Origin: Eubacteriales bacterium
Lineage (GTDB): Bacteria; Bacillota; Clostridia; Oscillospirales; CAG-272
Direction of reading: 5' to 3'
Length of the DNA stretch: 37,891 nt
Assembly: GCA_045120555.1 (NCBI GenBank)
Contig: JBGVEZ010000138.1
Coordinates: 1 to 37,891 of the forward strand
Shown: positions 6,691 through 22,397 of the stretch, piece by piece
Position numbering within the stretch: the first letter of the stretch is position 1
Layout of the letters: every line of letters starts with the position of its first letter
Notes under the pieces: generated by a model
The model's database searches: none
What the model was told of the DNA's origin: nothing
Seen by the model: only the letters and a program-made list of their open reading frames with translations
Position numbers and translations under genes: made by a program

Positions 6691-6715
6691 TGCAATAAAG
6701 GCGTTCAAAATATAA

Positions 6716-6753: not shown

Positions 6754-6783
6754 CATTTATGTAATTATCATTCTTTTATAAGA

Positions 6784-9078: not shown

Positions 9079-9088
9079 AAATTCACCG

Positions 9089-10135: not shown

Positions 10136-10174
10136 AGATAGCCTCCGTTAGGAATTTATAATATACCAACATAT

Positions 10175-10203
10175 ATTATATCATAAAAACTCCTTTTTGT
10201 CAA
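10175..10203 (-). promoter_or_regulatory. Consensus promoter for fnlABC (TTGACA-17nt-TATAAT on the minus strand)
   Basis: The reverse complement reads TTGACAaaaaggagtttttatgaTATAAT. The -35 is at 10198-10203 and the -10 at 10175-10180. Confidence 0.6.
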
Positions 10204-10244
10204 TAGATTACTTGAATTACTTGAAATTTAGCTCTTATTCACAG

Positions 10245-10280
10245 AAAAAGCTCCCGCAAACGCAAAAGCGAGAACGGGAG
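10245..10280 (-). terminator. Intrinsic terminator after the AAE transporter gene
   Basis: The minus strand reads CTCCCG...CGGGAG (10251-10280), followed by CTTTTTC. Confidence 0.65.
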
Positions 10281-10293
10281 ACGTGTTATAAAA

Positions 10294-11529
10294 TCAGAGA
10301 AACAGCATTATTATCAGCTGTGACGAAACGACGACCGAAATAAGGGAGATGGGATAGGTTGCAGCGTAAGCAGAAGCAACGTCCTCAGTTCCGGCAACGT
10401 TGATAAGTGTTCCGAGCGCGGGGGTGGATGTCATACCGCCGGTAATAGAACCGAGAATATTCAGAAGATTGAGCTTCAGAACGAACTTTGCAAAGATAAA
10501 TCCTATAACCATCGGCATAACGGTCATGATTGCGCCGTAAATGAAGTATATGGGCTCAAAGCACTCCACGAATTTCGCTCCGCCCGCAATTCCTGCACCG
10601 GTAAGGAAGAGCATAAGTCCGAATTCACGAAAAACCTTAAGAGTATGTGTAGGGGGCATGATCTTCACAGGACCGATGTGGTTGAAGTGTCCGAAAACGA
10701 GTGCGGTGAGAAGGCATCCGCCGGTGGTTGTAAGCGAGAACGCACCAAACTTTATCGAGCCGAGGATCATACCGATAATAGCCGCAACAGCGAACGGAGC
10801 GATTCCGAAGCCGTCAAGCTCGATCAGCTTCTTTTGGCTTTTAACCTCTATCGGATCCTCACCCGATGCACCTGCAGATTTGTCTGCGCCTGCAAGCTTT
10901 TCGCGCTCAACAGCCATATCCGCTTTAAGAAATTTGGGTATGAGCTGAACGAAGAGAACAACGCCGATTACGCCGAAAACGTATGCAATGCCGTTACCTA
11001 CAGACACGTAGTCAGCAAGCTCTGCACCGACAGACTCCTTGGATGCAGAGAATGCGGGAGTTGAGGTCAAGGCGCCTGAAAAAAGACCGGTCATAATGGA
11101 AACGAGCTCCTCCTTGGGATTATCCATAGTTCCGAGAGCGATTGCAGTACATCCAACGCACACAAGTGCGCCCGATATGATAATTACAAGGCCGAGAAGA
11201 ATATATGTTTTGAAGTTCTTTTTGAGGTCACCGAAGAACTTGGGACCTGCAATAAAGCCAACTGAGGTTACAAAAAGAATAAGGCCGATGCTTTCCACGA
11301 TGCTGAGCGCATTTTTAGTGTATTCAGCAGTCTGTGCGGCAAGATCTTCGTAGAAAAGGCATCCGTAAAGAAGAGCAATAAGAAATACTCCCGCGGTTCC
11401 GAGATTAACGCCCTTTATCGTAATGCGTCCGAGGCAGTAGCCGACCGCCGCAATTGCGAGAACGGAAAAGATGAGAAAAGATACGCCTGTTATTGAAAGC
11501 TGTACAAATCCGAGATCTATAAGTTTCAT
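10294..11529 (-). CDS. AAE-family (aspartate:alanine exchanger / SucE-like) transporter, two-repeat permease without TrkA-C domains
   Basis: Two homologous hydrophobic halves are separated by a charged loop. The N-terminus (GRITIKGVNLGTAGVFLIALL) and the second half (GSIKFGAFSLTTTGGCLLTAL) resemble the duplicated Asp-Al_Ex repeat. Confidence 0.65.
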   Translation of the reverse strand: MKLIDLGFVQLSITGVSFLIFSVLAIAAVGYCLGRITIKGVNLGTAGVFLIALLYGCLFYEDLAAQTAEYTKNALSIVESIGLILFVTSVGFIAGPKFFGDLKKNFKTYILLGLVIIISGALVCVGCTAIALGTMDNPKEELVSIMTGLFSGALTSTPAFSASKESVGAELADYVSVGNGIAYVFGVIGVVLFVQLIPKFLKADMAVEREKLAGADKSAGASGEDPIEVKSQKKLIELDGFGIAPFAVAAIIGMILGSIKFGAFSLTTTGGCLLTALVFGHFNHIGPVKIMPPTHTLKVFREFGLMLFLTGAGIAGGAKFVECFEPIYFIYGAIMTVMPMVIGFIFAKFVLKLNLLNILGSITGGMTSTPALGTLINVAGTEDVASAYAATYPISLISVVVSSQLIIMLFL

Positions 11530-11570
11530 TTAATAATTTGCCTCCAAAAAGTTATAAATAGGTTCACGCA

Positions 11571-11601
11571 GTCACACCCCGCGCTGAGCGCAGGGCGTGA
11601 C
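11571..11601 (-). other. Strand-specific 14-bp intercistronic RNA stem-loop between the frdA-like gene and the transporter
   Basis: The arms are 11571-11584 and 11588-11601. Two positions are A-C mismatches if transcribed from the + strand but G-U wobbles in the minus-strand RNA. No U-tract follows on the minus strand. Confidence 0.5.
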
Positions 11602-11613
11602 AACTTTTATATA

Positions 11614-13245
11614 TTATTTTGCTTCGAAACGGGGATTACCGTGTGTATATCTGGGGAGAAGAACAGGAGAAACCTTATCGGTTACGATACCTGCTTCCTT
11701 GAGTTCCTCAGCGAAAGCGTTAACGTGCTCGAGAGTAAGCTCGCCGACTGTCGTTTCCTTAGCAGCCTTTGCAGCGTTGATACCTGCGTTTCTACCGAAT
11801 ACGATGATGTCGAGGAGGGAGTTACCCATAAGTCTGTTTTCACCGTGGATACCGCCAACTGCTTCACCTGCAACGAAGAGGTTCTCAACGTCAGCCATAC
11901 CGTTAGCGCCGATCTTGATACCGCCGTTCTGGTAGTGGAGTGTGGGGTAGATGAGAATGGGCTGCTTACGCATATCGATACCGTACTTGAGGTACATACG
12001 CATCATAGCGGGGATTCTCTTTTCGATCGTTCCCTCACCGTGGAGTGCTTCGATCATGGGAGAGTCAAGCCAGATGCCGTAGCCGCCGTCGGGAGTAGCA
12101 ACGCCCTTGCCTCTTTCCTTGCATTCACGGATGATGGATGCAGCGGAAACGTCACGTGTCTCGAGGGGATTCATGAATGCTTCGCCCTCTGCGTTGATAA
12201 GCTGTGCACCGATGGATCTTACCTTCTCTGTTACGAGAGCACCGAAGATCTGGGAGGGGTACGCAACGCCTGTGGGATGGTACTGAAGAGTGTAAGCATA
12301 GAGGAGAGGTGCGCCTGCGCGGTATGCGAGAACGAGACCGTCAGCTGTTGCGCCGTAGTGGTTGGACGTGGGGAAGCCCTGATAGTGCATACGGCCTGCA
12401 CCGCCTGTTGCGATAACTACGGTCTTAGCCTTTGCGATAAGGAGCTCCTTGGTTTCCATGTTCATAAGAACAGCACCTGCAGCCTTGCCTTCCTTATCCT
12501 TGATGATCTCGATAGCAGCAGTGAAGTCAACTACCGGAATACCTCTGTTTACGACCTCGTCACGGAGAACACGCATGATCTCTGCACCGGAGTAGTCCTT
12601 GCAGGCATGCATTCTCTTGCGGGATGTACCGCCACCGTGAGTTGTAACCATAGTACCGTCAGCTTCCTTATCGAACATAACGCCGAGATCGTTGAGCCAC
12701 TTGATGGAGTTGGGGCCTTCGGTAACGAGCTTTTCGAGAAGCTCGGGAACGTTCTTGAAGTGACCGCCGCCGAGAGCGTCGATGTAGTGGATAGCGGGAG
12801 AGTCGTTGGGCTTATCTGCAGCCAGGATTCCACCCTCTGCCATCATTGTGTTAGCGTCGCCGTGGCGAAGCTTGGTAACGATCATGGCGTTTGCGCCGTT
12901 CTCGTTAGCCATGATTGCAGCCGCGCTACCTGCTCCGCCGCCACCGATGATTAGAACGTCAACGTCGTAATCGGGGTTTGAGAGGTCGATATCTGCGGGA
13001 TTGATGCGGCTGTTAGCCTGAAGGATCTCAGCAAGCTCAAGCGGAACCTTTTCGCCCTTGTTGGGACCCATCTTGAGGGTTGCGAACTGAGATGTGATAT
13101 AGTCGGGATGGAAAGCCGCAAGAACAGCGTCCTTTTCTTCTGCGGTCATACGGCGGGGGTTCTCGCCTGCATTGACCTTTGCAAGACGTTCTGCACGAGT
13201 TGCTTCAACCTTTTTTATAGATTCGAGCATATCCTGTGTATACAT
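11614..13245 (-). CDS. Fumarate reductase/succinate dehydrogenase-family FAD flavoprotein (FrdA/TfrA-like), soluble
   Basis: IIGGGGAGSAAA, QYHPTG, LVTEKVRSIGA (catalytic Arg position) and GGIHGENRLMGNSLLDIIVFG. RBS AGGAGG lies 8 nt upstream. There is a ~93-aa N-terminal extension. Confidence 0.8.
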   Translation of the reverse strand: MYTQDMLESIKKVEATRAERLAKVNAGENPRRMTAEEKDAVLAAFHPDYITSQFATLKMGPNKGEKVPLELAEILQANSRINPADIDLSNPDYDVDVLIIGGGGAGSAAAIMANENGANAMIVTKLRHGDANTMMAEGGILAADKPNDSPAIHYIDALGGGHFKNVPELLEKLVTEGPNSIKWLNDLGVMFDKEADGTMVTTHGGGTSRKRMHACKDYSGAEIMRVLRDEVVNRGIPVVDFTAAIEIIKDKEGKAAGAVLMNMETKELLIAKAKTVVIATGGAGRMHYQGFPTSNHYGATADGLVLAYRAGAPLLYAYTLQYHPTGVAYPSQIFGALVTEKVRSIGAQLINAEGEAFMNPLETRDVSAASIIRECKERGKGVATPDGGYGIWLDSPMIEALHGEGTIEKRIPAMMRMYLKYGIDMRKQPILIYPTLHYQNGGIKIGANGMADVENLFVAGEAVGGIHGENRLMGNSLLDIIVFGRNAGINAAKAAKETTVGELTLEHVNAFAEELKEAGIVTDKVSPVLLPRYTHGNPRFEAK

Positions 13246-13259
13246 ATTCAGCTTCCTCC

Positions 13260-13934
13260 TTATTTCTCAATTTCTCTTGTGTTGTAGAGCTCCTTAAGCT
13301 CTTCAAGAGGCTTCTGCATAAGCGATTCGATGATCGCCTTGAAATCACCGTTGAGTATCTCCTGAACTCTTGCCTCGAGGTGCTCGGAGGTGGGAGCGAG
13401 ATACTTACCCGTAAGTCTTCTGGAGAGAAGACCTACCTGAGGATGTGTGATACCTGCAGGGCAACGGGAGGAGCAGATTCCGCACATTACGCAGTCGAAG
13501 GATTCTTCAGCGCACTTTTCAAGCTCGCCTCTCTGCGCGTATGCTATGTACTGCATAACGTTAAGCTCCTGGGGACATACCTTTGTACAAGCGTTACAGC
13601 CAACGCAGGAGTAGATCTCGGGATAGAGCTGCATCATGATGCGCTCGGTGGGCTTTACGTTTTCGATATCGTAGGGCTGCTTTACAAGGGGGAAGAAGGG
13701 GAGAGTTGCAACGTACATATTGTCCTCAACCTGAGTCTGGCAAGCGAGGCAAGCCTTGAGCTCTCTGTCGCCCTTGATTCTGTAGATGGTAGCGCACGCG
13801 CCGCAGAAGCCGCAACGGCATCCGCATCCGCGAACGAGCTGGTAGCCGGCATATTCCATTGCGCCCATGATAGTGAGGCTTGCCGGTACTGTATACTGTT
13901 TACCGAAAAGGTATACATTAACTGTTTTTTCCAT
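13260..13934 (-). CDS. FrdB/SdhB-like iron-sulfur subunit (2Fe-2S plus two 4Fe-4S motifs)
   Basis: The N-terminal Cys pattern is GCGCRCGFCGACATIY...CLAC. It is followed by CVGCNACTKVCP and CVMCGICSSRCP. Confidence 0.72.
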   Translation of the reverse strand: MEKTVNVYLFGKQYTVPASLTIMGAMEYAGYQLVRGCGCRCGFCGACATIYRIKGDRELKACLACQTQVEDNMYVATLPFFPLVKQPYDIENVKPTERIMMQLYPEIYSCVGCNACTKVCPQELNVMQYIAYAQRGELEKCAEESFDCVMCGICSSRCPAGITHPQVGLLSRRLTGKYLAPTSEHLEARVQEILNGDFKAIIESLMQKPLEELKELYNTREIEK

Positions 13935-13966
13935 TATAGCGTTTTCCTTTCAAATCAAGTTTAGAA

Positions 13967-14800
13967 TTAATACTCATCGGGAAGCTCGCCAAGGGCATCG
14001 AATCTGAATACAGGTCCGTCCTTGCAAACGTATTTATCACCGATGTTGCAGCGTCCGCACTTACCGACACCGCACTTCATTTTAAGTTCCATTGTTGTGT
14101 AGACCTGAGTCTTGTCAAAGCCCAGCTCCATAAGACCCTGGAGTGTGAACTTGATCATGATAGGGGGTCCGCAAAGGAGAACCGTCTTGTTGGGAGTGAA
14201 TTCGAGCTCCTTAACGTAGGTAGGAACGAATCCGACGTGTCCGTCCCAGCCGTCCTGAGGACGGTCGATGGTAAGGTGAACGTTAACACCCTCGGATGTC
14301 ATCCATTCGTCGATGATCTCCTTATAGTCTACGAGGTCGTCCATGGAACGGGAGCCGTAAACTATATCAATCTTACCGTATCTGTCACGGTAATGGCGGC
14401 AGTAGTTGATTACCGAGCGGAGAGGAGCAAGACCGATACCGCCCGCGATGAAGAGCAGGTCCTGACCGACAAGCTCTGTATCAACCGGGAATGCGTTACC
14501 GTAAGGGCCTCTGATGGTAACCTGCTGACCGGGCTCCATTGCGTGAAGCCAGGTTGTAAGGCATCCGCACTTCTTGATGCTGAATTCCATAAACTCGGTG
14601 TTTGTAGGAGAGGACGTGATGGAGAACATAGCCTCGCCTACACCGGGAATAGAGAGCATTGCGCACTGACCGGGCTTGTGCTCAAAGCACTTACCGCTTC
14701 CGTCTGCCGCAATGACACGGAATGTTTTTACGTCGGGCGTATCGATTCTTACGTCGGTTACGACGCCGAGCATAGGTATAAGTGTATCCTTTTCAATCAT
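13967..14800 (-). CDS. FAD/NAD(P)H-binding reductase with C-terminal 2Fe-2S (FlxA/AsrB/HydG/PyrK-like)
   Basis: FNR-like fold marks (KPGQCAMLSIPG, FIAGGIGLAPL, LLCGPPIM) and a C-terminal CGVGKCGRCN...C cluster. The start overlaps the upstream stop as ATGA. Confidence 0.75.
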   Translation of the reverse strand: MIEKDTLIPMLGVVTDVRIDTPDVKTFRVIAADGSGKCFEHKPGQCAMLSIPGVGEAMFSITSSPTNTEFMEFSIKKCGCLTTWLHAMEPGQQVTIRGPYGNAFPVDTELVGQDLLFIAGGIGLAPLRSVINYCRHYRDRYGKIDIVYGSRSMDDLVDYKEIIDEWMTSEGVNVHLTIDRPQDGWDGHVGFVPTYVKELEFTPNKTVLLCGPPIMIKFTLQGLMELGFDKTQVYTTMELKMKCGVGKCGRCNIGDKYVCKDGPVFRFDALGELPDEY

Positions 14801-15831
14801 TGCTTGTCTTCTCCTTTTGCAAGCTCACGGATAACGCCTGCGATATTTTTGGAAACGGGGCATGCAGCAACGCATCTTCCGCATCCTACGCAACCGAAGA
14901 TACCTTCGTTGTTTGCGGGATAGTAAACGAGCTTATGCATAAATCTCTGACGGAAGCGTTCTACCTGAGAGGTTCTCGGGTTACCGTGCGCCATCTTTGT
15001 AAAGTCGGAGTACATGCAGCTGTCCCAGCAGCGGAATCTCTTGATACCGTCACCGGTGTTGAATTCTCTTATGTCGTAGCACTGGCAGGTGGGGCATACG
15101 AAGGTACACGTACCACAGCCGAGGCATGCTTCGGACATAGACTTCCACTTTTCGGAGTAGAAGAGCTCCTTGAGCTCCTTTTCGCTGATCTTATCAAGCG
15201 GAACGTTTGCAAGCGGAAGCTTTTCGAGAATCTTCTTTGTGTTTTCCTTGGTTTCTGTAAGCTCCTCGGCACATGCGTCCTCGCAAACAGCATCTATAGC
15301 AGCTGCAAGAGCTTCTGCCTTTTCTGTGAGGCACTCGATGTAAAGGTAATCACCCGAGATCCAAGCGGAAGCATCGCCTGCAGGCTCTGTGGGATCTATA
15401 CCGAACGCGGTACAGAAGCAGGTTTCGGAGGGTCTTGTACAAGCGAGAGTTACGATGATGCCGTTTTCTCTTCTTGTCTTATAGTAGCTGTCAACGGGAT
15501 CTACAAGGAATACTCTGTCGAGAAGAGCGGAGCTCTTTGCATCGCAAGCGCGAACACCGAAAACAACGTACTTTTCGTTAAGGCTCTCGTCAACCGAGGG
15601 AACGATCTCAATGCTCTTCCCCTTCATCTTGAAGTCAACGAGGTTTTCGCTCTGCGGGAAGTAGAAGTCCTTAACCGAACGGCCCGTGTTTACGTATTCG
15701 TAGGTAAGCTCGCCGGTTCCGTATTTTCTGAATTCAACGGAGGGACCGCACTTTGTGGGAACGTAGAGGTTTCTTGTTTCGCCTATCTTCTCAAAGAGAG
15801 CGGATACAGCGGAAAGCTTGATCTTTTTCAT
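14797..15831 (-). CDS. Iron-sulfur protein, AsrA/HydB-like (FlxB-like)
   Basis: Two ferredoxin-type motifs (CLGCGTCTFVCPTC and CVGCGRCVAACP) and an N-terminal domain resembling anaerobic sulfite reductase subunit A. It has a 1-nt overlap with the upstream gene. Confidence 0.62.
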   Translation of the reverse strand: MKKIKLSAVSALFEKIGETRNLYVPTKCGPSVEFRKYGTGELTYEYVNTGRSVKDFYFPQSENLVDFKMKGKSIEIVPSVDESLNEKYVVFGVRACDAKSSALLDRVFLVDPVDSYYKTRRENGIIVTLACTRPSETCFCTAFGIDPTEPAGDASAWISGDYLYIECLTEKAEALAAAIDAVCEDACAEELTETKENTKKILEKLPLANVPLDKISEKELKELFYSEKWKSMSEACLGCGTCTFVCPTCQCYDIREFNTGDGIKRFRCWDSCMYSDFTKMAHGNPRTSQVERFRQRFMHKLVYYPANNEGIFGCVGCGRCVAACPVSKNIAGVIRELAKGEDKQ

Positions 15832-16817
15832 CAGCAGTTACCCCTTTCTTTAACGATGCTCGGTTCAACGTCTTCCTTTGTGAAGGTGAGTACCGTGGGT
15901 TTTGTCTCGCTGTCCTCACCGGAAACGTACTCGCCGTAGAATTCGTTACCGTCCTTGATAAACTTACGGTTAAGGAGGTGGAGCGGAATTCTCTGAGGAC
16001 AAACTCTTGAGCATTCGCCGCAGTCGGTACAACGGCCGCAAACGTGGAACGCTCTTATAATATGGAACATATTTTCCTCGAACGTATCGGTATTTGCCTT
16101 TGAAGCGATACCGGATTCGTCGTTATCAAATACGCACTTGAGGCATGAGCAAGCGGGGCAAGCGTTACGGCATGCGTTACATCTGATACATCTGGAAAGC
16201 TCGCCTCTCCAGAACTCGTATCTTTCAGCAGCTGTCATAGCCTCGAGCTTTGCTACCTCGTCAAAACGGTCTGCACCGTATGTTTTCGTATTTTCTTCAT
16301 TTACAACGATAGTCTCGTCGAACACCTTGTGTTCCTTGCCCTTGCAGCAGAGGCATCTTTCAAGAAGGATATCTGCCTTTGCAAATTCCTTATCGCCGTA
16401 AAGAGTATTTACGGTAACGGTGTCGCCGTTGTCAACGAAGCCGAGAAGACCGATAACTCCGGCATCTCTGATCTTGTTGACGTCAAGGTTGCCTGCACAT
16501 TCAACGCCTACGATATAGAGCTTTGCTCTGTCGATTCTGTGCTCACGGATGAGCGCGTTAAGAGAATACGTATCGCAGGGCTTTGCGAAGACGAGGGTGC
16601 TTCCCTCCTTCGGGCATTCCTTGATAAGATATTTGGAGAGGTTGGGGCCGCAGAAATCATCGTATACGAGCTCGTCAAGCTCCTCAACACTCTCGAAGAT
16701 CGCAGGTACTGCATCGTAGAAGAACTCGCCTCTCTTCCAGCCGAGAACACGTGCAACCGTTCCCTCTGCGAGAAGCTTTGCAGCCTTTTCCTTCATTAAA
16801 GAAATTATTTCTTGCAT
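15831..16817 (-). CDS. Iron-sulfur protein (FlxC-like), C-terminal 2x[4Fe-4S] motifs
   Basis: CIRCNACRNACPAC and CGRCTDCGECSRVCP. RBS GGAGGA lies 6 nt upstream, and the start overlaps the mvhD-like stop by 13 nt. The family assignment is tentative. Confidence 0.55.
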   Translation of the reverse strand: MQEIISLMKEKAAKLLAEGTVARVLGWKRGEFFYDAVPAIFESVEELDELVYDDFCGPNLSKYLIKECPKEGSTLVFAKPCDTYSLNALIREHRIDRAKLYIVGVECAGNLDVNKIRDAGVIGLLGFVDNGDTVTVNTLYGDKEFAKADILLERCLCCKGKEHKVFDETIVVNEENTKTYGADRFDEVAKLEAMTAAERYEFWRGELSRCIRCNACRNACPACSCLKCVFDNDESGIASKANTDTFEENMFHIIRAFHVCGRCTDCGECSRVCPQRIPLHLLNRKFIKDGNEFYGEYVSGEDSETKPTVLTFTKEDVEPSIVKERGNC

Positions 16818-17245
16818 CTGAGGTCCTCCAGTCTTCTGTTCTCGCCAAGCTCTGTGATCTTAGCAACGAATTCATTCATGGTTGCGGCAAACTTCGCGCC
16901 CTCCGCAGCGGAGATCCATTCAACTCTCGTTCTCTCTCTCTCGATACCGAGGTAGTCGAGCATGGAGAAGAGGAGGGTCATACGGCGGCGGGTAAAGTAG
17001 TTACCTGTGGAATAGTGGCAGTCTCCGGGGTGGCATCCTGCGAGGATAACGCCGTCTGCGCCTCTCTGGAAGGCACGGAGAACGAACATGGGATTAACGC
17101 GGCAGGAGCAGGGCACGCGAATGATCTTAACGTTTGCGGGATAGTTAAGTCTACCCGTTCCAGCAAGGTCAGCGCCCGCATAGGAGCACCAGTTGCAGCA
17201 GAACGCTACGATCTTGGGTTCAAAAGGCTTATTTACATCTTGCAT
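16805..17245 (-). CDS. mvhD: MvhD/FlpD-family protein (FlxD-like electron-transfer subunit)
   Basis: FCCNWCSYAGADLAG...VPCSCRVNP...AGCHPGDCHY is the MvhD signature. It overlaps hdrA by 13 nt. Confidence 0.85.
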   Translation of the reverse strand: MQDVNKPFEPKIVAFCCNWCSYAGADLAGTGRLNYPANVKIIRVPCSCRVNPMFVLRAFQRGADGVILAGCHPGDCHYSTGNYFTRRRMTLLFSMLDYLGIERERTRVEWISAAEGAKFAATMNEFVAKITELGENRRLEDLRCKK

Positions 17246-19221
17246 ATTGCATCTACCTCCGCCATAATCTGTCTGTTTGTGAATCCCTTAAGGTTCATTG
17301 CGCCCGAGGGACAAGCAACCGTACAAGCACCGCAGCCGTGGCAGACAGCGGGGTTAACGGATGCTACGCGGCGAATCTCAACGTTGCGTCCGACTCTGAA
17401 TTCCTTATCGCTGTAGGTGATTGCGCCGTAGGGGCAAACGTTTTCACAGCAAGAGCATCCGTTACAGAGCATCTCGTCGCTGATAGCAACGCAGGGGTCT
17501 GTTGTGAGCTTATCCTTTGCGAGAAGACCGATAACCTTAGCCGCAGCGGCACCTGCCATTGCAACAGTTTCGGGAACGTCTCTCGGACCCTGACACGTAC
17601 CGGAGAGGAATACACCGGCTGTGGGGCTTTCTACGGGACGGAGCTTTGCGTGTGCTTCTGTGAAGAAGTCGTTGGTATCCATGCTTGCCGTGAGCTTTGT
17701 TGCAAGTGCACGCGCACCGAGGTTAGGCTCGATAGCGGTTGCAAGGACTACCATATCTGCGGCGATTTCGATCTTTTCATCGTTGATAAGATCGCTCGCC
17801 TGAACCATGAGCTTGCCGTTAACGTCGTTTACCTTACCGACAGCGCCCTTGATATAATGAACGTTGTATTCTTCGACAGCTCTGCGATAGAACTCATCGA
17901 AGTTCTTACCGGGTGTACGAACGTCTATGTAGAATACGTAGACCTCTGTGTCCGGATATTTTTCTCTTGTAAGCATTGCATGCTTTGCCGTGTACATACA
18001 GCAGATCTTGGAGCAGTAGGGCTTGCCGCATCCGGAGGTATCTCTCGAGCCAACGCACTGAACGAATACGATGGTGTGAGGATGCTCGTTATCGGAGGGA
18101 CGGAGAAGCTTACCGCCTGTGGGGCCTGCAGCATTTGTGATTCTCTCGAATTCAAGGCTGGTGATAACGTCGGGGCAACGGGAGTAGCCGTACTCGTCGA
18201 AGTTTTCAAGCGAGATGGGCTTAAAGCCGGTTGCAACAACGATTGCGCCGTATTCTCTTGTAACGATCTCGTCCTTCATAGAGAAGTCGATAGCGTTAAC
18301 GCCGCAGTTTCTTGCGCAAAGACCGCACTTGCCGTTCTTAAGCATAAGGCACTGCTCGGGGTCGATTGCGGGAACCTTCGGGATCGCCTGAGCGAAGGGG
18401 ATGTAGATCGCGCCTCTCTTCTTGAGGCCCATATTGAATTCATCAAGGCCCTTTCTGGAGGGACACTTTTCTGTACAAACTCCACAACCCGTGCAGAGGT
18501 CTTCCTTAACGTATCTTGCCTTACGGCGGATATCTACCTGGAAGTTACCTACGAAGCCGTGAACGTCCTCAACCTCGCTGTAGGACATGATGTTGATCTT
18601 TTCGTGCTGTGCTGCATCAACCATCTTAGGTGTGAGGATACAAGCCGAGCAGTCGAGAGTCGGGAAGGTCTTATCGAGCTGGGACATACGTCCGCCGATG
18701 GTGGGCTCCTTCTCTACGATGTCAACCTCATAGCCTGCGTCTGCGATATCAAGCGCAGTCTGGATACCTGCGATACCACCGCCGATTACGAGTGCTCTCT
18801 TTACAACCGGGCTCTCACCGGGCTGGAGAGGAGCGTTAAGGTTTACCTTAGCTATTGCGGCACGGCCGAGGATAATAGCCTTAAGGGTTGCGTCTCCCAT
18901 ATCCTTATGTATCCATGAGCACTGCTCTCTGATGTTTGCGATCTCTACCATGTAGGGGTTGATTCCCGCAACGGTAGCCGCACGTCTGAAGGTAGCCTCG
19001 TGCATACGGGGAGAGCAGGAGCAAACTACAACACCTGTAAGCTTATGCTCCTTAACTGAGTTTATGATAAGCTGCTGACCGCTTTCCGAGCACATGTACT
19101 GATAGTCGTGCGCGCAAACTACGCCTGCCTCATGGCTGAGGGCCTCGGCAACCTTTGCAACGTCAACGGTACCTGCGATGTTCGTTCCGCACCAGCATAC
19201 AAAAACGCCTATTCTCTGCAT
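17233..19221 (-). CDS. hdrA: Heterodisulfide-reductase subunit A-like flavoprotein (HdrA)
   Basis: VIGGGIAGIQTA, FPTLDCSACILTP and FVQCVGSRD...YCSKICCMYTAKH. There is an inserted ferredoxin motif and C-terminal ones (CTGCGVCTEKCP, CNGCSCCENVCP, CHGCGACTVACP). RBS AAGGAGA is present. Confidence 0.9.
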   Translation of the reverse strand: MQRIGVFVCWCGTNIAGTVDVAKVAEALSHEAGVVCAHDYQYMCSESGQQLIINSVKEHKLTGVVVCSCSPRMHEATFRRAATVAGINPYMVEIANIREQCSWIHKDMGDATLKAIILGRAAIAKVNLNAPLQPGESPVVKRALVIGGGIAGIQTALDIADAGYEVDIVEKEPTIGGRMSQLDKTFPTLDCSACILTPKMVDAAQHEKINIMSYSEVEDVHGFVGNFQVDIRRKARYVKEDLCTGCGVCTEKCPSRKGLDEFNMGLKKRGAIYIPFAQAIPKVPAIDPEQCLMLKNGKCGLCARNCGVNAIDFSMKDEIVTREYGAIVVATGFKPISLENFDEYGYSRCPDVITSLEFERITNAAGPTGGKLLRPSDNEHPHTIVFVQCVGSRDTSGCGKPYCSKICCMYTAKHAMLTREKYPDTEVYVFYIDVRTPGKNFDEFYRRAVEEYNVHYIKGAVGKVNDVNGKLMVQASDLINDEKIEIAADMVVLATAIEPNLGARALATKLTASMDTNDFFTEAHAKLRPVESPTAGVFLSGTCQGPRDVPETVAMAGAAAAKVIGLLAKDKLTTDPCVAISDEMLCNGCSCCENVCPYGAITYSDKEFRVGRNVEIRRVASVNPAVCHGCGACTVACPSGAMNLKGFTNRQIMAEVDAICKM

Positions 19222-19232
19222 TGCTTCTCTCC

Positions 19233-19628
19233 TTATTTATTATACTTTCTCATAGCCGACATAAGCGCCTGTCCGGGCATTTCGTCGTCTATCCTTGCGG
19301 GGATCTCATCCTGCTTCATGTAAGCACCACCCTGACGGCGAAGAGCAACCGCTCTTGCAGCCTCAGCAAGCTTTGCGGGCTTAACGTCTCTCGGGCAACG
19401 CTCAAGGCAAGCAAAGCAGGACATACATTTATAAATGCCCTTGGAGTTTGCAAGCTCTTCAACTCTTCCGTCAAGAACGTACTGAGCGAACTTGTGGGGG
19501 TGGATCTCCATTTCGTCGAAGGCGGGACAAGCCGCGGAGCATTTTCCGCACTTCATACACTTTTCGGGGTGAGCGCCGCTTATTCTGATAACAAGGGCTT
19601 TAAGCTCTGAGCCTTTATTTCCGTGCAT
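19233..19628 (-). CDS. hdrC: HdrC-like 2x[4Fe-4S] subunit
   Basis: CMKCGKCSAACP and CMSCFACLERCP. The start is set at ATG 19628 (MHGNKG), 6 nt after AAGGAGG and 10 nt after the hdrB stop, rather than at the overlapping 19664. Confidence 0.8.
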   Translation of the reverse strand: MHGNKGSELKALVIRISGAHPEKCMKCGKCSAACPAFDEMEIHPHKFAQYVLDGRVEELANSKGIYKCMSCFACLERCPRDVKPAKLAEAARAVALRRQGGAYMKQDEIPARIDDEMPGQALMSAMRKYNK

Positions 19629-19638
19629 ACCGTCCTCC

Positions 19639-20433
19639 TTAATTCTCGCCGCCGCAAACGCCAAGGGCCTCTGCGATAAGCTCTGTTATATAGTAGGTAG
19701 GAAGCTTTGCCTTTTCTCCGCCGTGTACAAGGTTATACATACAGAGGGGGCAAGCGGTAATGAGACAGTCCGCACCCTTATCGGCTGCGCTCTCTCTTAC
19801 GGCATCCGCGCGCTTTGCGGCAATGCTTCTATCATCCACAACGGTATAACCGCCGCAGCATTCGTTTCTCATTGAGTATACGACAGCAGTTGCGCCGAGA
19901 GCCTTTACAAGATCCTCCATGATCTTGGGATTCTCGGGATTATCGAACTGCATTTCCTTTGAGGGACGGAGAAGCATGCATCCGTAGTAGGGAGCAACCT
20001 TTCTTCCCTTGAGAGGATTTACAACAGCCTTCTTGAGCTCGTCGAATCCGACCTTATCTCTGAGAAGCTCGAGGTAGTGAACAACCTCCGTTTCACCCGT
20101 ATAGGGTACTTCAAGTCCGAGATAGCTGTTAACACGCGATCTTATGTACTCGTTGTTCTTCATGTCCTCGTTTACGAGCTTTATGACATGATGGCAAGCC
20201 GAGCAAAGAGTTACAAGTACCTGACCCTTATCTCTTGCCGCAACGAGGGCTCTCACTGCGGGAAGTCTTGTTGCAATCTCGTCCTGGTTCATCGGATAAA
20301 CCGCACCGCAGCACTGCCAATCCGGCACCTCTTCAAGTGTGATTCCGAGCTTTTCGCAGGAGAGTCTTGCAAACTTATCAAGGTCCTTTGCCTTGTTTTT
20401 GAGTGTACAGCCGGGATAATAACTGTAAATCAT
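19639..20433 (-). CDS. hdrB: HdrB-like subunit with two complete CCG domains
   Basis: YYPGC...WQCCGA...LCSAC and YYGC...ECCGG...ACPLC match the CX(n)CCGX(m)CXXC motif twice. Confidence 0.88.
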   Translation of the reverse strand: MIYSYYPGCTLKNKAKDLDKFARLSCEKLGITLEEVPDWQCCGAVYPMNQDEIATRLPAVRALVAARDKGQVLVTLCSACHHVIKLVNEDMKNNEYIRSRVNSYLGLEVPYTGETEVVHYLELLRDKVGFDELKKAVVNPLKGRKVAPYYGCMLLRPSKEMQFDNPENPKIMEDLVKALGATAVVYSMRNECCGGYTVVDDRSIAAKRADAVRESAADKGADCLITACPLCMYNLVHGGEKAKLPTYYITELIAEALGVCGGEN

Positions 20434-20454
20434 ATAGAAAATTTACCTCCGGTA

Positions 20455-20483
20455 ATTAGTTTACTGTGTTAATTTTTTGACAA
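20455..20483 (-). promoter_or_regulatory. Possible promoter of the hdr-flx-frd operon (TTGTCA-17nt-ACTAAT)
   Basis: On the minus strand the -35 is at 20478-20483 and the -10 at 20455-20460. The -10 is imperfect, so read-through from fumC is also possible. Confidence 0.35.
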
Positions 20484-20492
20484 ATAATACGC

Positions 20493-20560
20493 AAAAAAAT
20501 GGGATTCCTATGCGTATAAAATCCCAACAAGCGGCGAAGACAATTTTTTATCTTCGCCGC
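20493..20560 (-). terminator. Composite terminator after fumC (two hairpins, second followed by T7)
   Basis: The minus strand reads GCGGCGAAGA-loop-TCTTCGCCGC (20531-20560), then GGGATT-loop-AATCCC (20501-20525), followed by ATTTTTTTG. Confidence 0.55.
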
Positions 20561-20581
20561 AAGTAAGCATAAGTCTATTTA

Positions 20582-21973
20582 TCAGACCATCTGCTCGGGA
20601 TGGAATACCTCGTCGAACTTTTCAGCGGTAAGGAATCCGAGCTCTACGCAAGCCTCCTTAAGGGAGCAGTTGTCCTTGAATGCCTTCTTAACGGTCTTAG
20701 CCGCGTTCTCATAACCGATGTAGGGGTTAAGAGCTGTAACGAGCATAAGGGAGTTGTGAAGGTTGTTGTGCATCTTTTCTCTGTCCGCAACGATACCTAC
20801 AGCACACTTGTTGTTGAAGGAAACGATGGACTCCGCAAGAAGACGAGCGGACTGGAGGAAGTTATAAATACAAACGGGCATAAATACGTTAAGCTCGAAG
20901 TTACCCTGGGATGCTGCCATACCTACAGCTACGTCGTTACCCATAACCTGAACAGCTACCATTGTAGCCTGCTCGCACTGAGTGGGGTTAACCTTACCGG
21001 GCATGATGGAGGAGCCGGGCTCGTTCTCGGGGATCTTGATCTCGCCGAGACCTACTCTGGGTCCGGATGCAAGCCATCTTACGTCGTTTGCGATCTTCAT
21101 CATATCAGCAGCAAGTGCCTTGAGTGCGCCGTGAGCAAATACGAGCTCGTCCTTGGATGTGAGCGCATGGAACTTGTTCTCAGCTGTTACGAAGTGCTTA
21201 CCCGTGATCTCGGAAACAGCCTCAGCAACCTTAACGTCAAAGCCCTTGGGGCAGTTAAGACCTGTACCAACAGCTGTACCGCCGAGAGCGAGCTCGGAAA
21301 GGTAAGGAAGTGCGCTTTCAAGCATAGCTCTGTCTCTTTCAAGAGAGCTTCTCCAGCCGGAGATCTCCTGAGAGAACTTTATAGGTGTAGCATCCTGAAG
21401 ATGTGTTCTACCGCTCTTAACGATTCCCTCGTTCTCCTCTTCAAGTCTCTTGAGAGTTGCAACGAGAAGGTCGATTGCGGGGAAAACCTTATCCTCAATA
21501 ACTATCTTTGCAGCGATGTGCATAGCTGCGGGGAACGTATCGTTAGAGCTCTGGCTCATGTTGATATCGTCATTGGGATGAAGAGCCTTTTCAAGGGATG
21601 CACCTGCGATCTCGGTACCTCTGTTAGCAATAACCTCGTTAGCATTCATGTTGGACTGTGTTCCCGAACCTGTCTGCCATACTACGAGCGGGAAGTGGTC
21701 GTTGAGCTTGCCTGCGATAACCTCGTCACATGCTGCGGAAATTGCAGCGAGCTTTGCGTCTGTCATCTTCTCGGGCTTAAGAGCGTTGTTTGCGATAGCG
21801 CAAGCCTTCTTAAGAACGCCGAATGCGTGTGTGATTTCTCTGGGCATGGTTTCGATGCCTACACCGATAAGGAAGTTCTCGTGGCTTCTCTCTGTCTGTG
21901 CAGCCCAATACTTGTCGGCAGGTACCTTTACCTCGCCCATAGAGTCTCTTTCAATACGATATTCCTGTGCCAT
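20582..21973 (-). CDS. fumC: Class II fumarate hydratase
   Basis: YRIERDSMGEVKVPADKYWAAQTERS...GSSIMPGKVNPTQCE is the FumC/aspartase family signature. The start is set at ATG 21973 (MAQEYRIE) after GGAGGAAA, not at 22051. Confidence 0.93.
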   Translation of the reverse strand: MAQEYRIERDSMGEVKVPADKYWAAQTERSHENFLIGVGIETMPREITHAFGVLKKACAIANNALKPEKMTDAKLAAISAACDEVIAGKLNDHFPLVVWQTGSGTQSNMNANEVIANRGTEIAGASLEKALHPNDDINMSQSSNDTFPAAMHIAAKIVIEDKVFPAIDLLVATLKRLEEENEGIVKSGRTHLQDATPIKFSQEISGWRSSLERDRAMLESALPYLSELALGGTAVGTGLNCPKGFDVKVAEAVSEITGKHFVTAENKFHALTSKDELVFAHGALKALAADMMKIANDVRWLASGPRVGLGEIKIPENEPGSSIMPGKVNPTQCEQATMVAVQVMGNDVAVGMAASQGNFELNVFMPVCIYNFLQSARLLAESIVSFNNKCAVGIVADREKMHNNLHNSLMLVTALNPYIGYENAAKTVKKAFKDNCSLKEACVELGFLTAEKFDEVFHPEQMV

Positions 21974-22065: not shown

Positions 22066-22094
22066 ATTATACCATAAAAGCGCTCTCTTGTAAA
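22066..22094 (-). promoter_or_regulatory. Promoter for fumC (TTTACA-17nt-TATAAT, TG-extended)
   Basis: The reverse complement reads TTTACAagagagcgcttttatggTATAAT. Confidence 0.55.
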
Positions 22095-22187: not shown

Positions 22188-22216
22188 TTGACATTTGGTG
22201 TTTTTTATGATATAAT
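22188..22216 (+). promoter_or_regulatory. Consensus promoter for the thiT leader (TTGACA-17nt-TATAAT)
   Basis: TTGACA is at 22188-22193 and TATAAT at 22211-22216, with an upstream TGA. Confidence 0.65.
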
Positions 22217-22237: not shown

Positions 22238-22330
22238 TCGCACAATTCGGGGGTGCCTATGGCTGAGACGGATCAATTCCGAACCCTTTGACCTGATACG
22301 GATAATGCCGTCGTAGGGAGAAAGACGTTA
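22238..22330 (+). promoter_or_regulatory. TPP (THI-box) riboswitch aptamer
   Basis: GGGGGTGCC...GGCTGAGA...ACCCTTTGACCTGATACGGATAATGCCGTCGTAGGGAG matches the conserved TPP aptamer core. It sits upstream of a thiamine transporter gene. Confidence 0.88.
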
Positions 22331-22366
22331 ATGTCGTGAGAGAGCTCTCGCTCTTTCCGGATTTCA

Positions 22367-22397
22367 ACCGCACGGATCTCGTGCGGTTTTTGTTTTT
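22367..22397 (+). terminator. Riboswitch expression-platform terminator
   Basis: ACCGCAC-ggatctc-GTGCGGT is followed by TTTTTGTTTTT, just upstream of the thiT RBS. Confidence 0.75.

Follow-up and report, generated by a model that had tools for sequence, protein, structure and literature searches.

Judged from its sequence, the locus described here is an 11-gene “succinate operon” of a gut Clostridia-type bacterium, a single transcription unit with the order fumC-hdrBCA-flxDCBA-frdBA-transporter, located within the 37,891-nt stretch of DNA that was analyzed (the window). We consider it rather likely that this operon encodes a ferredoxin-bifurcating, Flx-Hdr-driven soluble fumarate reductase complex that would catalyze the last steps of the reductive succinate branch. 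If so, succinate formation probably also yields reduced ferredoxin. What was observed for the locus is its gene content, its cofactor motifs, the retention of active-site residues, the synteny with relatives, and the pathway genes next to it; complex formation, the identity of the electron donor, bifurcation, and a direct HdrB-to-FrdB wire are inferred.

The core of the operon (positions 11614 to 20433, minus strand) consists of tightly packed genes for hdrB, hdrC, hdrA, flxD/mvhD, flxC, flxB, flxA, a frdB-like gene, and a frdA-like gene (Table 1). An initial annotation had taken these nine genes as the whole unit; the core stood as described, but the unit also takes in the upstream fumC and the downstream Asp-Al_Ex transporter gene. 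All nine open reading frames were recovered with their coordinates and lengths, the junctions overlapping by 13, 13, 1, and 4 nt or leaving gaps of 10 to 11, 11, 32, and 14 nt. The motifs quoted earlier were found in the respective proteins, and profile searches returned the domain content previously assigned. In agreement with the claimed lack of a membrane anchor, TM-like segments were absent from all nine core proteins. The start of hdrC, formerly placed at a longer TTG open reading frame, is most likely ATG 19628, which has AAGGAGG 5 nt upstream. The nine core genes appear translationally coupled, and their soluble products carry complete Flx, Hdr, and Frd cofactor motifs; both would be anatomical support for one complex. 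The fumC-hdrB spacer measures 148 nt in the window and 11 to 26 nt in many relatives; its second hairpin with the U-run is possibly a partial terminator or a stabilizer. Past the terminator-like hairpin downstream of the transporter gene, the next set of genes has its own promoter-like site, a perfect match, at 10203-10175.

TABLE 1 Features of the succinate operon and its borders in the window
Feature	Coordinates	Strand	Evidence
Terminator-like hairpin and T-run, 3' of transporter gene	10250..10269	-	Sequence pattern
AspT/YidE/YbjL (Asp-Al_Ex) family transporter, 411 aa	10294..11529	-	PF06826, two repeats, E 5e-60; TIGR01625, 140 bits (over cut-off of 72)
frdA-like flavoprotein, 543 aa	11614..13245	-	PF00890 (FAD_binding_2), profile positions 1-414 of 414, E 1e-64
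frdB-like iron-sulfur subunit, 224 aa	13260..13934	-	Alignment with E. coli FrdB; one 2Fe-2S site and two full 4-Cys sites
flxA-like NAD(P)H-binding FAD/[2Fe-2S] reductase, 277 aa	13967..14800	-	NAD_binding_1, FAD_binding_6, and DHODB_Fe-S_bind domains
flxB-like, AsrA/sulfhydrogenase-beta-like Fe-S protein, 344 aa	14797..15831	-	Fer4_22, E 3.5e-30
flxC-like Fe-S protein, 328 aa, di-cluster	15831..16817	-	Two CxxCxxCxxxCP motifs
flxD/mvhD-like, 146 aa	16805..17245	-	PF02662 FlpD, full length, E 7.6e-56
hdrA, 662 aa, FAD and multiple Fe-S clusters	17233..19221	-	NF040770 HdrA2, 784 bits
hdrC, 131 aa from ATG 19628	19233..19628	-	Two CxxCxxCxxxCP motifs
hdrB, 264 aa	19639..20433	-	PF02754, two stretches; CCG at residues 41 and 192
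fumC-hdrB spacer, two strong hairpins, U-run after the second	20434..20581	-	z = -5.7 for an RNA fold of -45.3 kcal/mol
fumC, class II fumarate hydratase, 463 aa from ATG 21973, GGAGG upstream	20582..21973	-	TIGR00979, 695 bits (over cut-off of 665); Lyase_1 and FumaraseC_C
Putative promoter-like site, TTTACA-17 nt-TATAAT with TG, 5' of fumC	22066..22094	-	Consensus scan, 11/12 matches (pattern match)

HdrA, the candidate bifurcation site, gave a full-length match of 667 bits to HdrA of the solved HdrABC-MvhAGD complex (5ODC_A) and is colinear with this structurally characterized bifurcating protein. Two CCG domains (PF02754) were confirmed in HdrB, as expected from its two complete CCG motifs, and two noncubane [4Fe-4S] clusters are predicted for it; it scored 128 bits against a solved HdrB (8RVV_B) and 148 and 150 bits against the HdrB and MFR SdhE models, respectively, both under cut-off. 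FlxD shows 78 to 86% identity in relatives. FlxA matches HydG/AsrB/PyrK-type models, while FlxB matches the ShyB (165 bits) and AsrA (133 bits) models, both under cut-off.

The flavoprotein is nearest to methanogen TfrA without being its equivalog; TfrA is the best NCBIfam match, with 331 bits versus a cut-off of 718. Placement in a NadB or AprA clade, named in advance as refuting the proposal, was not obtained. The protein has a 95-aa N-terminal extension and lacks the C-terminal Succ_DH_flav_C domain, so that 72 residues follow the last catalytic Arg; the E. coli proteins FrdA and SdhA have 189 to 211 there, and NadB has 154. Asn replaces the covalent-FAD His, and the protein is predicted to be of the noncovalent-FAD type. 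We mapped its residues onto E. coli FrdA, SdhA, and NadB (FrdA gene numbering with Met1): H323/T325, T339/E340/R343, R364, H437, and R471 correspond to FrdA H233/T235, T245/E246/R249, R288, H356, and R391, so that the dicarboxylate-binding and catalytic residues of E. coli FrdA are all retained. H323, P324, T325, E340, R343, R364, D365, H437, and R471 are invariant in an alignment that includes distant family members (A3). The TEKVRSIGA motif, previously taken as the catalytic Arg position, is present and equivalent to FrdA T245/E246/R249, but the proton-donor Arg is R364 in LETRDV (FrdA R288); both the motif equivalents and R364 are conserved.

The invariant cysteines of the FrdB-like protein are C39, C44, C47, and C65 (2Fe-2S), C110/113/116/120, and C148/154/158. 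C151 takes the place of the Val to which the E. coli protein owes its 3Fe-4S cluster, and the third cluster is predicted to be 4Fe-4S instead. A natural FrdB-FrdA fusion (P0122) was found among the relatives. In Gammaproteobacteria MAGs the FrdBA module adjoins a NuoF-like NADH-binding subunit; since FrdBA occurs beside this subunit as well as beside Flx-Hdr, FrdB resembles a general-purpose port through which NADH-oxidizing modules deliver electrons.

The initial annotation had proposed that Flx/Hdr is genetically tied to FrdBA-like genes and suggested a survey across genomes. The nine genes form one conserved unit: of the 57 related genomes (species level) in which the locus had sufficient flanking sequence, 56 have them colinear. 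Closest to the window are uncultured Acutalibacteraceae/Oscillospirales gut MAGs (84% identity), and the related hosts are gut and rumen fermenters. In 37 related loci, hdrB is immediately preceded by a fumC orthologue (75 to 88% identity), while Lachnospiraceae-type loci instead have the alpha and beta subunits of a class I fumarase, encoded downstream. At least 35 loci have an upstream gene for an LDH-like dehydrogenase whose MDH-specifying position is Arg. The Asp-Al_Ex transporter, with at least 8 TM-like segments, is a candidate succinate or C4-dicarboxylate carrier; roughly one in two related loci has it downstream of frdA. Because the nine genes adjoin a fumarase and usually also an LDH-like malate dehydrogenase, fumarate is likely the substrate of the flavoprotein, as first proposed; the retained FrdA active-site residues and the C4-type transporter point the same way. 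Among more distant relatives, a 57%-identical one (L085) has HdrA-MvhD-HdrC-HdrB-FrdB-FrdA beside a four-subunit 2-oxoacid:ferredoxin oxidoreductase (Kor). FrdBA lacks adjacent Hdr/Flx in L080 (Congzhengia), L081 (a FrdB-FrdA fusion), and L084; thus, other, possibly diffusible donors can serve, and HdrB docking is not a family requirement.

It is plausible that NAD(P)H electrons pass through Flx to HdrA, where bifurcation would send them to ferredoxin and, via HdrCB and FrdBA, to fumarate. The operon would convert malate to fumarate and succinate, followed by export, with the nine core proteins most likely forming one soluble Fe-S/flavin complex. FlxA (FAD, 2Fe-2S) would oxidize NAD(P)H and pass electrons through the FlxB/FlxC clusters and FlxD (MvhD-like) to the HdrA FAD, at which each electron pair would be split. 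The uphill electron would travel over the ferredoxin-like clusters of HdrA to ferredoxin, while the downhill electron would proceed through HdrC, the two HdrB CCG clusters, and FrdB (two 4Fe-4S, one 2Fe-2S) to the noncovalent FAD of FrdA, which would reduce fumarate. The net reaction would be 2 NAD(P)H + fumarate + 2 Fd(ox) -> 2 NAD(P)+ + succinate + 2 Fd(red). We count against this mechanism the FrdBA modules without Hdr/Flx, the distance between hdrB and frdB, which in the window lie toward either end of the nine-gene block, and the hairpin-rich spacer that separates fumC from hdrB. In methanogens, two complete CCG motifs form a disulfide-reducing site; HdrB keeps both, so that a thiol/disulfide intermediate may be involved, which also counts against it. 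For bacterial Flx-Hdr, we know of proposals of bifurcation but of no demonstration with a purified enzyme.

NADH-to-fumarate electron transfer is strongly exergonic by itself, bifurcation has not, to our knowledge, been demonstrated for every HdrA-containing complex, and the three-gene FrdB-FrdA-NuoF-like version in Gammaproteobacteria makes it plausible that FrdBA proteins of this family simply reduce fumarate with NADH. The complex could accordingly be a nonbifurcating NAD(P)H:fumarate reductase in which Flx, Hdr, and FrdB serve as a long wire and ferredoxin is not reduced. We regard this as unlikely: at least 56 species conserve seven additional Fe-S/flavin subunits, among them a canonical, full-length HdrA with its ferredoxin-like domains, which is hard to explain for a task that a NuoF-like subunit alone appears to perform elsewhere. 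Quite unlikely is a thiol-mediated route, by which Flx-HdrABC would reduce a low-molecular-weight or protein disulfide and the HdrB CCG site would reoxidize the thiols and feed FrdBA, making HdrB, FrdB, and FrdA a split TfrAB. Neither a DsrC-like protein nor CoM/CoB biosynthesis is encoded in the operon as a candidate source of a thiol carrier, a single HdrB would need to both reduce and oxidize the carrier, and FrdB has no CCG domain, even though TfrA is the best model for the flavoprotein and the FrdB-like protein (224 aa) and HdrB (264 aa), which match the N-terminal and C-terminal parts of the TfrB model, respectively, together equal its length of 488 positions. Flx-Hdr electrons have also been described as passing to “ferredoxin (and thiols)” (PMC7282089), and homologues have been named putative thiol:fumarate reductase (PMC6315080).

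That FrdBA stands alone in L080, L081 (the fusion), and L084 would fit separate, merely cotranscribed enzymes, with FrdBA fed by a diffusible carrier (ferredoxin, flavodoxin) and Flx-Hdr serving another acceptor. This is distinctly improbable given the near-universal Hdr/Flx colinearity in the close family (56/57), the recurrence of Hdr-FrdBA adjacency in a distant relative whose other neighbors differ, and an operon without any other acceptor enzyme. Bifurcating complexes are reversible in principle, and Kor-Hdr-Frd clusters belong to organisms with TCA-type cycles (PMC6315080); a confurcating direction, with succinate oxidized to fumarate, driven by oxidation of reduced ferredoxin, and NADH made, as syntrophic succinate/propionate oxidizers need, is nonetheless very improbable for gut and rumen fermenters whose operon includes an exporter-type transporter, a fumarase, and often Mdh, the Pseudoclostridium thermosuccinogenes operon being part of a succinate-producing fermentation (PMC7282089). 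Finally, NadB models score just below Frd/Sdh models on the flavoprotein (260 versus 269 to 331 bits), every equivalog cut-off is missed, and the PF00890 family holds many nonfumarate reductases, such as urocanate reductase. Activity on L-aspartate (NadB-like) or on a different enoate (urocanate or acrylate, for example) is still hardly credible: the NadB E121 position has no Glu (H203 or G204, depending on the alignment), the flavoprotein has a FrdB partner, which NadB lacks, the C4-dicarboxylate ligands are conserved (4/4), and the neighbors are fumarase and Mdh, with no nadA or nadC.

The ferredoxin-bifurcating fumarate reductase proposed here shares traits with several known systems. That an Hdr/MvhD module can be genetically fused to a reductase for something other than a heterodisulfide has a precedent in the Moorella thermoacetica HdrABC-MvhD-MetFV methylene-THF reductase, which differs in terminal enzyme and donor and for which bifurcation is not established either. 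The proposed acceptor of Desulfovibrio vulgaris FlxABCD-HdrABC is DsrC or a heterodisulfide; in the window DsrC is absent and a fumarate reductase is attached. The seven-module content is the same as in that system (Ramos et al., 2015) (NAD(P)H flavoprotein, two AsrA/HydB-like Fe-S proteins, MvhD-like, HdrA, HdrB, HdrC), but the order is mirrored in the window (hdrBCA-flxDCBA). Methanothermobacter TfrAB (Heim et al., 1998) is likewise soluble, and its TfrB joins a FrdB-like part to HdrB-type CCG domains; both parts are encoded in the window, but as separate proteins and without CoM/CoB context. Unlike TfrA, the window flavoprotein has the N-terminal extension, lacks the last ~120 TfrA model positions, and scores far below the TfrA cut-off. 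Flavoprotein and Fe-S subunits are homologous to those of QFR/SQR (E. coli FrdABCD, SdhCDAB), sharing their active-site residues and cluster ligands, whereas the window system differs by having no membrane anchor or quinone, by the His-to-Asn change at the covalent-FAD site, and by the predicted third 4Fe-4S cluster. As in type E SdhABEF/MFR, Sdh/Frd is paired with an HdrB-like CCG protein, in line with the MFR SdhE score of HdrB.

The initial annotation implied novelty, yet publications of 2019-2020 already contain this type of operon and the idea behind it (PMC7282089; related proposal, PMC6315080). Its remark that it knew of no biochemically characterized complex of such composition agrees with our literature search, which found no biochemical characterization of any member of this operon type. 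For tubeworm symbionts and Thioflavicoccus mobilis, Rubin-Blum et al. (2019) described tfrAB-flxABCD-hdrABC-korABCD rTCA clusters and proposed a complex shuttling electrons to fumarate reductase (PMC6315080). Tfr-like fumarate reductase genes are interspersed with flx/hdr there as well, and L085 looks like this cluster type; unlike these autotrophic rTCA clusters of Gammaproteobacteria, the window represents a fermentative succinate branch of gut Clostridia, without kor. Koendjbiharie et al. (2020) named a “succinate operon” in P. thermosuccinogenes and proposed ferredoxin-coupled fumarate reduction via Flx-Hdr (PMC7282089; preprint 10.20944/preprints201912.0288.v1). Its genes are all highly expressed and shift jointly by ~3- to 4-fold (log2 FC -1.4 to -2.0) (PMC7282089); coexpression of frdBA-like and hdr/flx genes, on which the initial annotation made its proposal depend, is thus seen for counterparts matched by gene order and size. 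Homology was judged by architecture: fumC, hdrB (~261 aa there), hdrC, five genes over 5.3 kb, a ~224-aa FrdB-like protein, and a ~534-aa FrdA-like protein follow in the same order with near-identical sizes. The window comes from a different organism, nearest to the Acutalibacteraceae/Oscillospirales gut MAGs, and in place of the 250-nt last gene of P. thermosuccinogenes it has the 411-aa Asp-Al_Ex transporter.

Profile searches bore out the assignments of the nine minus-strand genes at 11614-20433, with coordinates, lengths, and junctions (overlaps of 13, 13, 1, and 4 nt; gaps of at most 32 nt) as the initial annotation gave them. The hdrC ORF also stands, but its start is more likely the ATG behind AAGGAGG than the one first chosen. 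The absence of a membrane anchor was confirmed, in that none of the nine proteins (0/9) has a transmembrane-like segment; the sole membrane protein is the Asp-Al_Ex transporter, and a membrane-bound QFR or type E Sdh was rejected on these grounds. The boundary of the unit had to be widened from nine genes, since fumC upstream and the transporter gene downstream also belong to it. We read fumC as part of the same transcription unit because many relatives have just 11 to 26 nt between fumC and hdrB. Spacers of 60 to 200 nt, also rich in hairpins but different ones, occur in a few relatives. The spacer hairpins in this genome could be an attenuator or a transcript-stabilizing element.

Features of the window and clusters of relatives (last rows, each on its own contig)
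Feature	Position	Strand	Description
Large serine recombinase ORF, 626 aa	798-2678	plus	Resolvase + Recombinase + Zn_ribbon_recom
tmRNA gene	2543-2891	minus	Rfam RF00023, 173 bits
Three-gene set	6784-10135		Polysacc_synt_2 dehydratase; epimerase/reductase with Polysacc_synt_C domain; UDP-GlcNAc 2-epimerase
Promoter-like site, perfect	10203-10175		own site of the three-gene set
Terminator-like hairpin	10269-10250		after transporter gene
AspT/YidE/YbjL (Asp-Al_Ex) family transporter, 411 aa	10294-11529	minus	directly downstream of frdA
543-aa protein (FrdA-like)	11614-13245	minus	FAD_binding_2 model matched over entire length
224-aa protein	13260-13934	minus	FrdB/SdhB-like
277-aa protein (FlxA-like)		minus	HydG/AsrB/PyrK-type FAD/NAD(P)/2Fe-2S reductase
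344-aa protein (FlxB-like)		minus	di-cluster Fe-S protein, AsrA/sulfhydrogenase-beta type
328-aa protein (FlxC-like)		minus	di-cluster Fe-S protein
FlxD, 146 aa		minus	FlpD/MvhD domain, full length, E 8e-56
HdrA, 662 aa		minus	784 bits vs HdrA2 model
HdrC	start probably ATG 19628	minus	two CxxCxxCxxxCP motifs; AAGGAGG ahead of start
HdrB, 264 aa		minus	two CCG domains (profile search)
fumC-hdrB spacer, 148 nt	20434-20581		pair of highly stable hairpins, -45 kcal/mol, z = -5.7; U-run after second
fumC, class II fumarate hydratase	20582-21973	minus	TIGR00979, 695 bits, above cut-off; directly upstream of hdrB
Promoter-like site TTTACA-17-TATAAT	22094-22066		upstream of fumC
Promoter-like site, perfect	22188-22216		divergent from operon promoter
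TPP riboswitch	22239-22336		RF00059, 66.7 bits
Terminator-like hairpin	22366-22388		between riboswitch and transporter gene
ThiT/YuaJ-type thiamine transporter	22424-23020		after riboswitch and hairpin
Lachnospiraceae-type operon	L046 1899-13014; L037 1753-14322		LDH-like Mdh - hdrBCA - flxDCBA - frdBA - (Asp-Al_Ex) - class I fumarase alpha, beta
Kor-Hdr-Frd cluster	L085 811-9771		KorDABG-HdrA-MvhD-HdrC-HdrB-FrdB-FrdA
FrdBA with NuoF-like gene	L082 9366-12891		FrdB-FrdA, then overlapping NuoF-like gene
FrdBA with transporter	L080 8079-11605		CitMHS transporter-FrdB-FrdA
FrdB-FrdA fusion	L081 5250-7433		single 727-aa protein
FrdA-FrdB pair	L084 10001-12357		pair alone

The seven genes next to frdBA make up a complete FlxABCD-HdrABC set (FlxA flavoprotein, FlxB and FlxC Fe-S proteins, MvhD-like FlxD, HdrA, HdrB, and HdrC), according to a family definition that reportedly comes from Ramos et al. 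in 2015. That family is described as coupling NADH oxidation to the reduction of ferredoxin and a disulfide (DsrC). HdrA residues 3 to 658 align with residues 5 to 648 of 5ODC_A from the solved HdrABC-MvhAGD complex (667 bits), and HdrB matches 8RVV_B with 128 bits. The core features of a bifurcating Hdr are all present: full-length HdrA, HdrB with two CCG motifs, and HdrC with two 4Fe-4S motifs. NCBIfam scores fall below the methanogen equivalog cut-offs (784 vs 1100 for HdrA, 148 vs 345 for HdrB, and 58 vs 160 for HdrC), so these proteins are homologues, not equivalogs, of the methanogen enzymes.

The 543-aa flavoprotein was aligned with E. coli FrdA, SdhA, and NadB from NC_000913.3 (E. coli residues in gene numbering). 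It contains a complete SdhA/FrdA/NadB superfamily domain (PF00890, E 1.3e-64, profile positions 1-414/414, residues 96-477) and retains all the residues by which E. coli FrdA binds and protonates the C4-dicarboxylate: H323/T325 correspond to FrdA H233/T235, T339/E340/R343 to T245/E246/R249, R364 to R288, H437 to H356, and R471 to R391. In a diverse family alignment with relatives of 38 to 57% identity, H323, E340, R343, R364, and R471 are invariant and H437 is nearly so. The TEKVRSIGA motif is therefore present as the initial annotation had it, but its Arg is the equivalent of FrdA R249; the proton donor is R364, in LETRDV. The His that binds 8-alpha-FAD covalently in E. coli FrdA (H45) is replaced by Asn132, and this Asn is invariant across the family. 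The signature FHPDY...GxNxGE is conserved in a 95-residue N-terminal extension. The chain ends 72 residues after R471, compared with 189 to 211 in E. coli FrdA and SdhA (154 to 211 over all the E. coli enzymes, including NadB), and the C-terminal domain is therefore missing; a profile search for Succ_DH_flav_C (PF02910) likewise gave no match. In sum of parts, the covalent-FAD His, the C-terminal helical domain, and the membrane anchors of classical FrdA/SdhA are all three absent.

None of the curated models comes near its equivalog cut-off with this protein, those for FrdA/SdhA included. The best is methanogen TfrA (NF004900), with 331 bits (cut-off, 718) and profile positions 427-546 unmatched, so the protein is not a TfrA equivalog. 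Generic SdhA/FrdA follows with 269 bits, and NadB TIGR00551 with 260 bits (cut-off, 453). By alignment, H203 or G204 occupies the position of E. coli NadB Glu121, a residue with a functional role in NadB. Identity as NadB was rejected on the lack of Glu at this position, the presence of an Fe-S partner, and the fumarase and Mdh neighbours. The protein appears to form a separate subfamily of fumarate-reductase-like flavoproteins that is neither NadB nor AprA, so the placement with those enzymes that the initial annotation had named as contrary to its proposal was not found. An AlphaFold2 model (mean pLDDT 62, 217 residues <50, from an alignment of 22 homologues 83 to 95% identical) was set aside, its quality allowing neither a fold search nor a reading of the N-terminal extension.

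The 224-aa FrdB-like partner conserves all 2Fe-2S and 4Fe-4S ligands of E. coli FrdB. At the third-cluster site, a fourth Cys replaces the Val that makes the E. coli cluster 3Fe-4S. The pairing of this protein with the flavoprotein is supported by a natural FrdB-FrdA fusion protein of 727 aa (P0122).

One genome per GTDB species was scanned, which gave 561 relatives; the best 80 of these (69 to 84% identity) were examined. Almost all of these 80 are gut, rumen, or faecal Clostridia MAGs, from Acutalibacteraceae, Oscillospiraceae, Lachnospiraceae, Christensenellaceae, and Ruminococcus; the cultured carriers among them are Yeguia hominis and Ohessyouella blattaphilus, for which the literature searched contained no succinate data. 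Of this best 80, 57 loci extend at least 7.3 kb beyond frdA on the upstream side, and 56 of these 57 had hdrB-hdrC-hdrA-flxD-flxC-flxB-flxA-frdB-frdA in the same order. The fumC gene stands directly upstream in 37 loci (75 to 88% identity), and about half of the loci have the Asp-Al_Ex transporter. Lachnospiraceae-type loci do without fumC and have two class I fumarase subunits (alpha and beta) downstream, which is a non-orthologous replacement. An LDH/MDH-family gene lies upstream in about 40 loci and scores as L-LDH in NCBIfam. In this family, Arg at the Gln/Arg specificity position specifies oxaloacetate/malate, and since at least 35 of these genes have Arg there, we read them as probable LDH-like malate dehydrogenases. 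Thus, the cluster is repeatedly embedded in a route from oxaloacetate through malate and fumarate to succinate and its export. Full Clostridia-type operons of 69 to 72% identity were also found on contigs labelled Bacteroidaceae, Planctomycetota, Bacteroides uniformis, Phascolarctobacterium, and Synergistaceae (loci L029, L031, L040, L068, and L073), reflecting either MAG mis-binning or horizontal transfer.

The best-supported model, which we consider probable, is the one first proposed for this block, a bifurcating NAD(P)H:fumarate/ferredoxin oxidoreductase; comparative genomics has strengthened it. Its basis is the parts, their motifs, their synteny, and their context, from which we infer complex formation, the electron donor, bifurcation, and a wire from HdrB to FrdB. 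NAD(P)H would be oxidized at FlxA, and FlxB/C and FlxD would carry the electrons on to the HdrA flavin for bifurcation, with one branch leading to ferredoxin and the other through HdrC and HdrB to FrdB, FrdA, and fumarate. A non-bifurcating NAD(P)H:fumarate reductase, in which the same subunits serve as a plain wire, is unlikely. A candidate three-subunit NuoF-FrdBA enzyme exists, yet a further seven redox subunits, a canonical HdrA among them, stay conserved here, which favours bifurcation without proving it.

A thiol-mediated enzyme, with the thiol:fumarate reductase TfrAB (electron donor, CoM-SH/CoB-SH) split into more chains, would account for the FrdB-like and HdrB lengths, which together equal the TfrB model's 488 positions. 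TfrB joins an FrdB-like part and two CCG domains in one chain, whereas here they are two separate proteins: a profile search found no CCG domain in the FrdB-like protein, the CCG domains sit in HdrB, and matches to TfrB are weak, with 46 bits for the FrdB-like protein over the N-terminal part of the model and 30 bits for HdrB over the C-terminal part. No DsrC-like gene occurs within the operon. We regard this split arrangement as somewhat less likely still than the plain wire. That the block encodes two independent enzymes, an Flx-Hdr complex and a fumarate reductase, is improbable alongside the nearly invariant gene order, and operation of the bifurcating complex in reverse (confurcating) is very improbable. 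Least credible of all is another substrate for the flavoprotein; the pathway context is the strongest sequence-level argument for fumarate.

Distant relatives place FrdBA in other settings. In an SRA assembly (L085, 57% identity), a four-subunit 2-oxoacid:ferredoxin oxidoreductase (Kor) precedes HdrA-MvhD-HdrC-HdrB and FrdBA, and Flx genes are absent from the contig of 10 kb; this arrangement resembles the rTCA clusters reported elsewhere (PMC6315080). Two Gammaproteobacteria MAGs (L082 and L083) have FrdBA of 48% identity, with the same N-terminal extension, followed by a gene with Complex1_51K and NADH_4Fe-4S domains that scores 386 bits against the nuoF family model. These three genes look like a candidate soluble NADH:fumarate reductase, and we know of no description of such an enzyme. 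FrdBA of a Congzhengia MAG (L080) adjoins a CitMHS transporter with no Hdr/Flx nearby, the FrdB-FrdA fusion gene of L081 also has no neighbouring Hdr/Flx, and the pair in L084, likewise without them, lies on a contig with a protein to which NCBI gives the name Prochlorococcus sp. MIT 1201. Together, the Kor/Hdr, NuoF-like, and stand-alone settings make FrdB look like an entry port that may take electrons from differing donor modules, Flx-Hdr being the one used in Clostridia.

To a wider reading of these settings, taken as a whole, we give an even chance. FrdBA would represent a separate class of soluble "plug-in" fumarate reductases, not described so far, with non-covalent FAD, a conserved N-terminal extension of ~95 aa in place of the C-terminal domain, and an all-4-Cys FrdB. 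It would dock on Flx-HdrABC in gut Clostridia, on Kor-adjacent HdrABC-MvhD in another lineage, and on a NuoF-like subunit in Gammaproteobacteria, and would also occur alone or as a fusion. In the form with a bifurcating Flx-Hdr module, HdrB would use its non-cubane CCG clusters solely to pass electrons on to FrdB, reducing no disulfide, and fumarate (+30 mV) would be the high-potential acceptor of flavin-based bifurcation. If so, widespread gut and rumen Clostridia would have an unrecognized means of energy conservation in succinate formation.

Although the initial annotation knew of no characterized complex of this composition, the hypothesis itself was published in 2019-2020. Pseudoclostridium thermosuccinogenes has a succinate operon in which genes for a fumarate hydratase, an Flx-Hdr complex (seven genes), and a fumarate reductase (two genes) are accompanied by a small hypothetical gene, and its fumarate reductase was assumed to be linked to ferredoxin reduction (Koendjbiharie et al. 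2020, PMC7282089). Compared by gene coordinates, this operon (CDQ83_RS03320-03365, within NZ_NIOI01000001.1 780948-791708) matches the window almost gene for gene in order, fumC - hdrB - hdrC - (hdrA, flxD, flxC, flxB, flxA) - frdB-like - frdA-like, and in size (fumC, 1366; hdrB, 784; hdrC, 325; the five genes, 5348; frdB-like, 676; and frdA-like, 1603 nt; PMC7282089 supplement). Its genes are co-regulated and all strongly expressed, with FPKM values of 2400-12700 and log2 fold changes of -1.4 to -2.0 (PMC7282089 supplement), and co-expression of frdBA-like and hdr/flx genes, on which the initial annotation had laid weight, is thereby documented for a cluster of matching architecture. Independently, in tubeworm symbionts and Thioflavicoccus, tfrAB is interspersed with flxABCD-hdrABC and korABCD, and a complex shuttling electrons to fumarate reductase was suggested (Rubin-Blum et al. 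2019, PMC6315080). Our searches of the literature, which had limited coverage, found no purification or assay of such a complex and no characterized bifurcating fumarate reductase, and the cluster look-ups returned no named Hungateiclostridiaceae member. The operon of the window, in an uncultured Acutalibacteraceae-like gut bacterium, is thus a member of a described but biochemically uncharacterized kind. Added here are its breadth across gut and rumen Clostridia, the exchange of fumC for class I fumarase together with the Mdh linkage, and the modular partners of the FrdBA family.

Since at least 56 genomes at species level carry the operon, most of them of animal or human gut origin and two of them cultured isolates, the hypothesis raised for P. 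thermosuccinogenes is relevant to succinate/propionate cross-feeding in gut and rumen as well as to bio-succinate production, and it is testable in culturable strains. For P. thermosuccinogenes, CRISPRi is already in use (PMC9044749). If the complex bifurcates, succinate-forming Clostridia would gain reduced ferredoxin from fumarate reduction with neither quinones nor a membrane-bound fumarate reductase, and Rnf, hydrogenase, or some other energy-conserving system that depends on ferredoxin could be supplied in this way. Fumarate would then count among the few high-potential acceptors of flavin-based electron bifurcation, and HdrBC would be shown to have a role other than with disulfides.

The position after frdA is occupied by a 411-aa transporter gene in the window and by a gene for an ~83-aa product in P. 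thermosuccinogenes (CDQ83_RS03315, 250 nt, NZ_NIOI01000001.1 780948-781197). The latter was called a potential succinate transporter (PMC7282089), which seems unlikely; its FPKM of 5173 (PMC7282089 supplement) is higher than the value of any operon gene reported singly.

Elsewhere in the window, a TPP riboswitch and a terminator-like hairpin precede the thiamine transporter gene, behind a promoter-like site divergent from that of the operon. Downstream of the operon, the three-gene set resembles the FnlABC/CapEFG route to UDP-L-FucNAc. One end of the tmRNA gene is overlapped by the 3' end of the recombinase ORF (region 798-2891), which may reflect insertion of an integrative element into ssrA.
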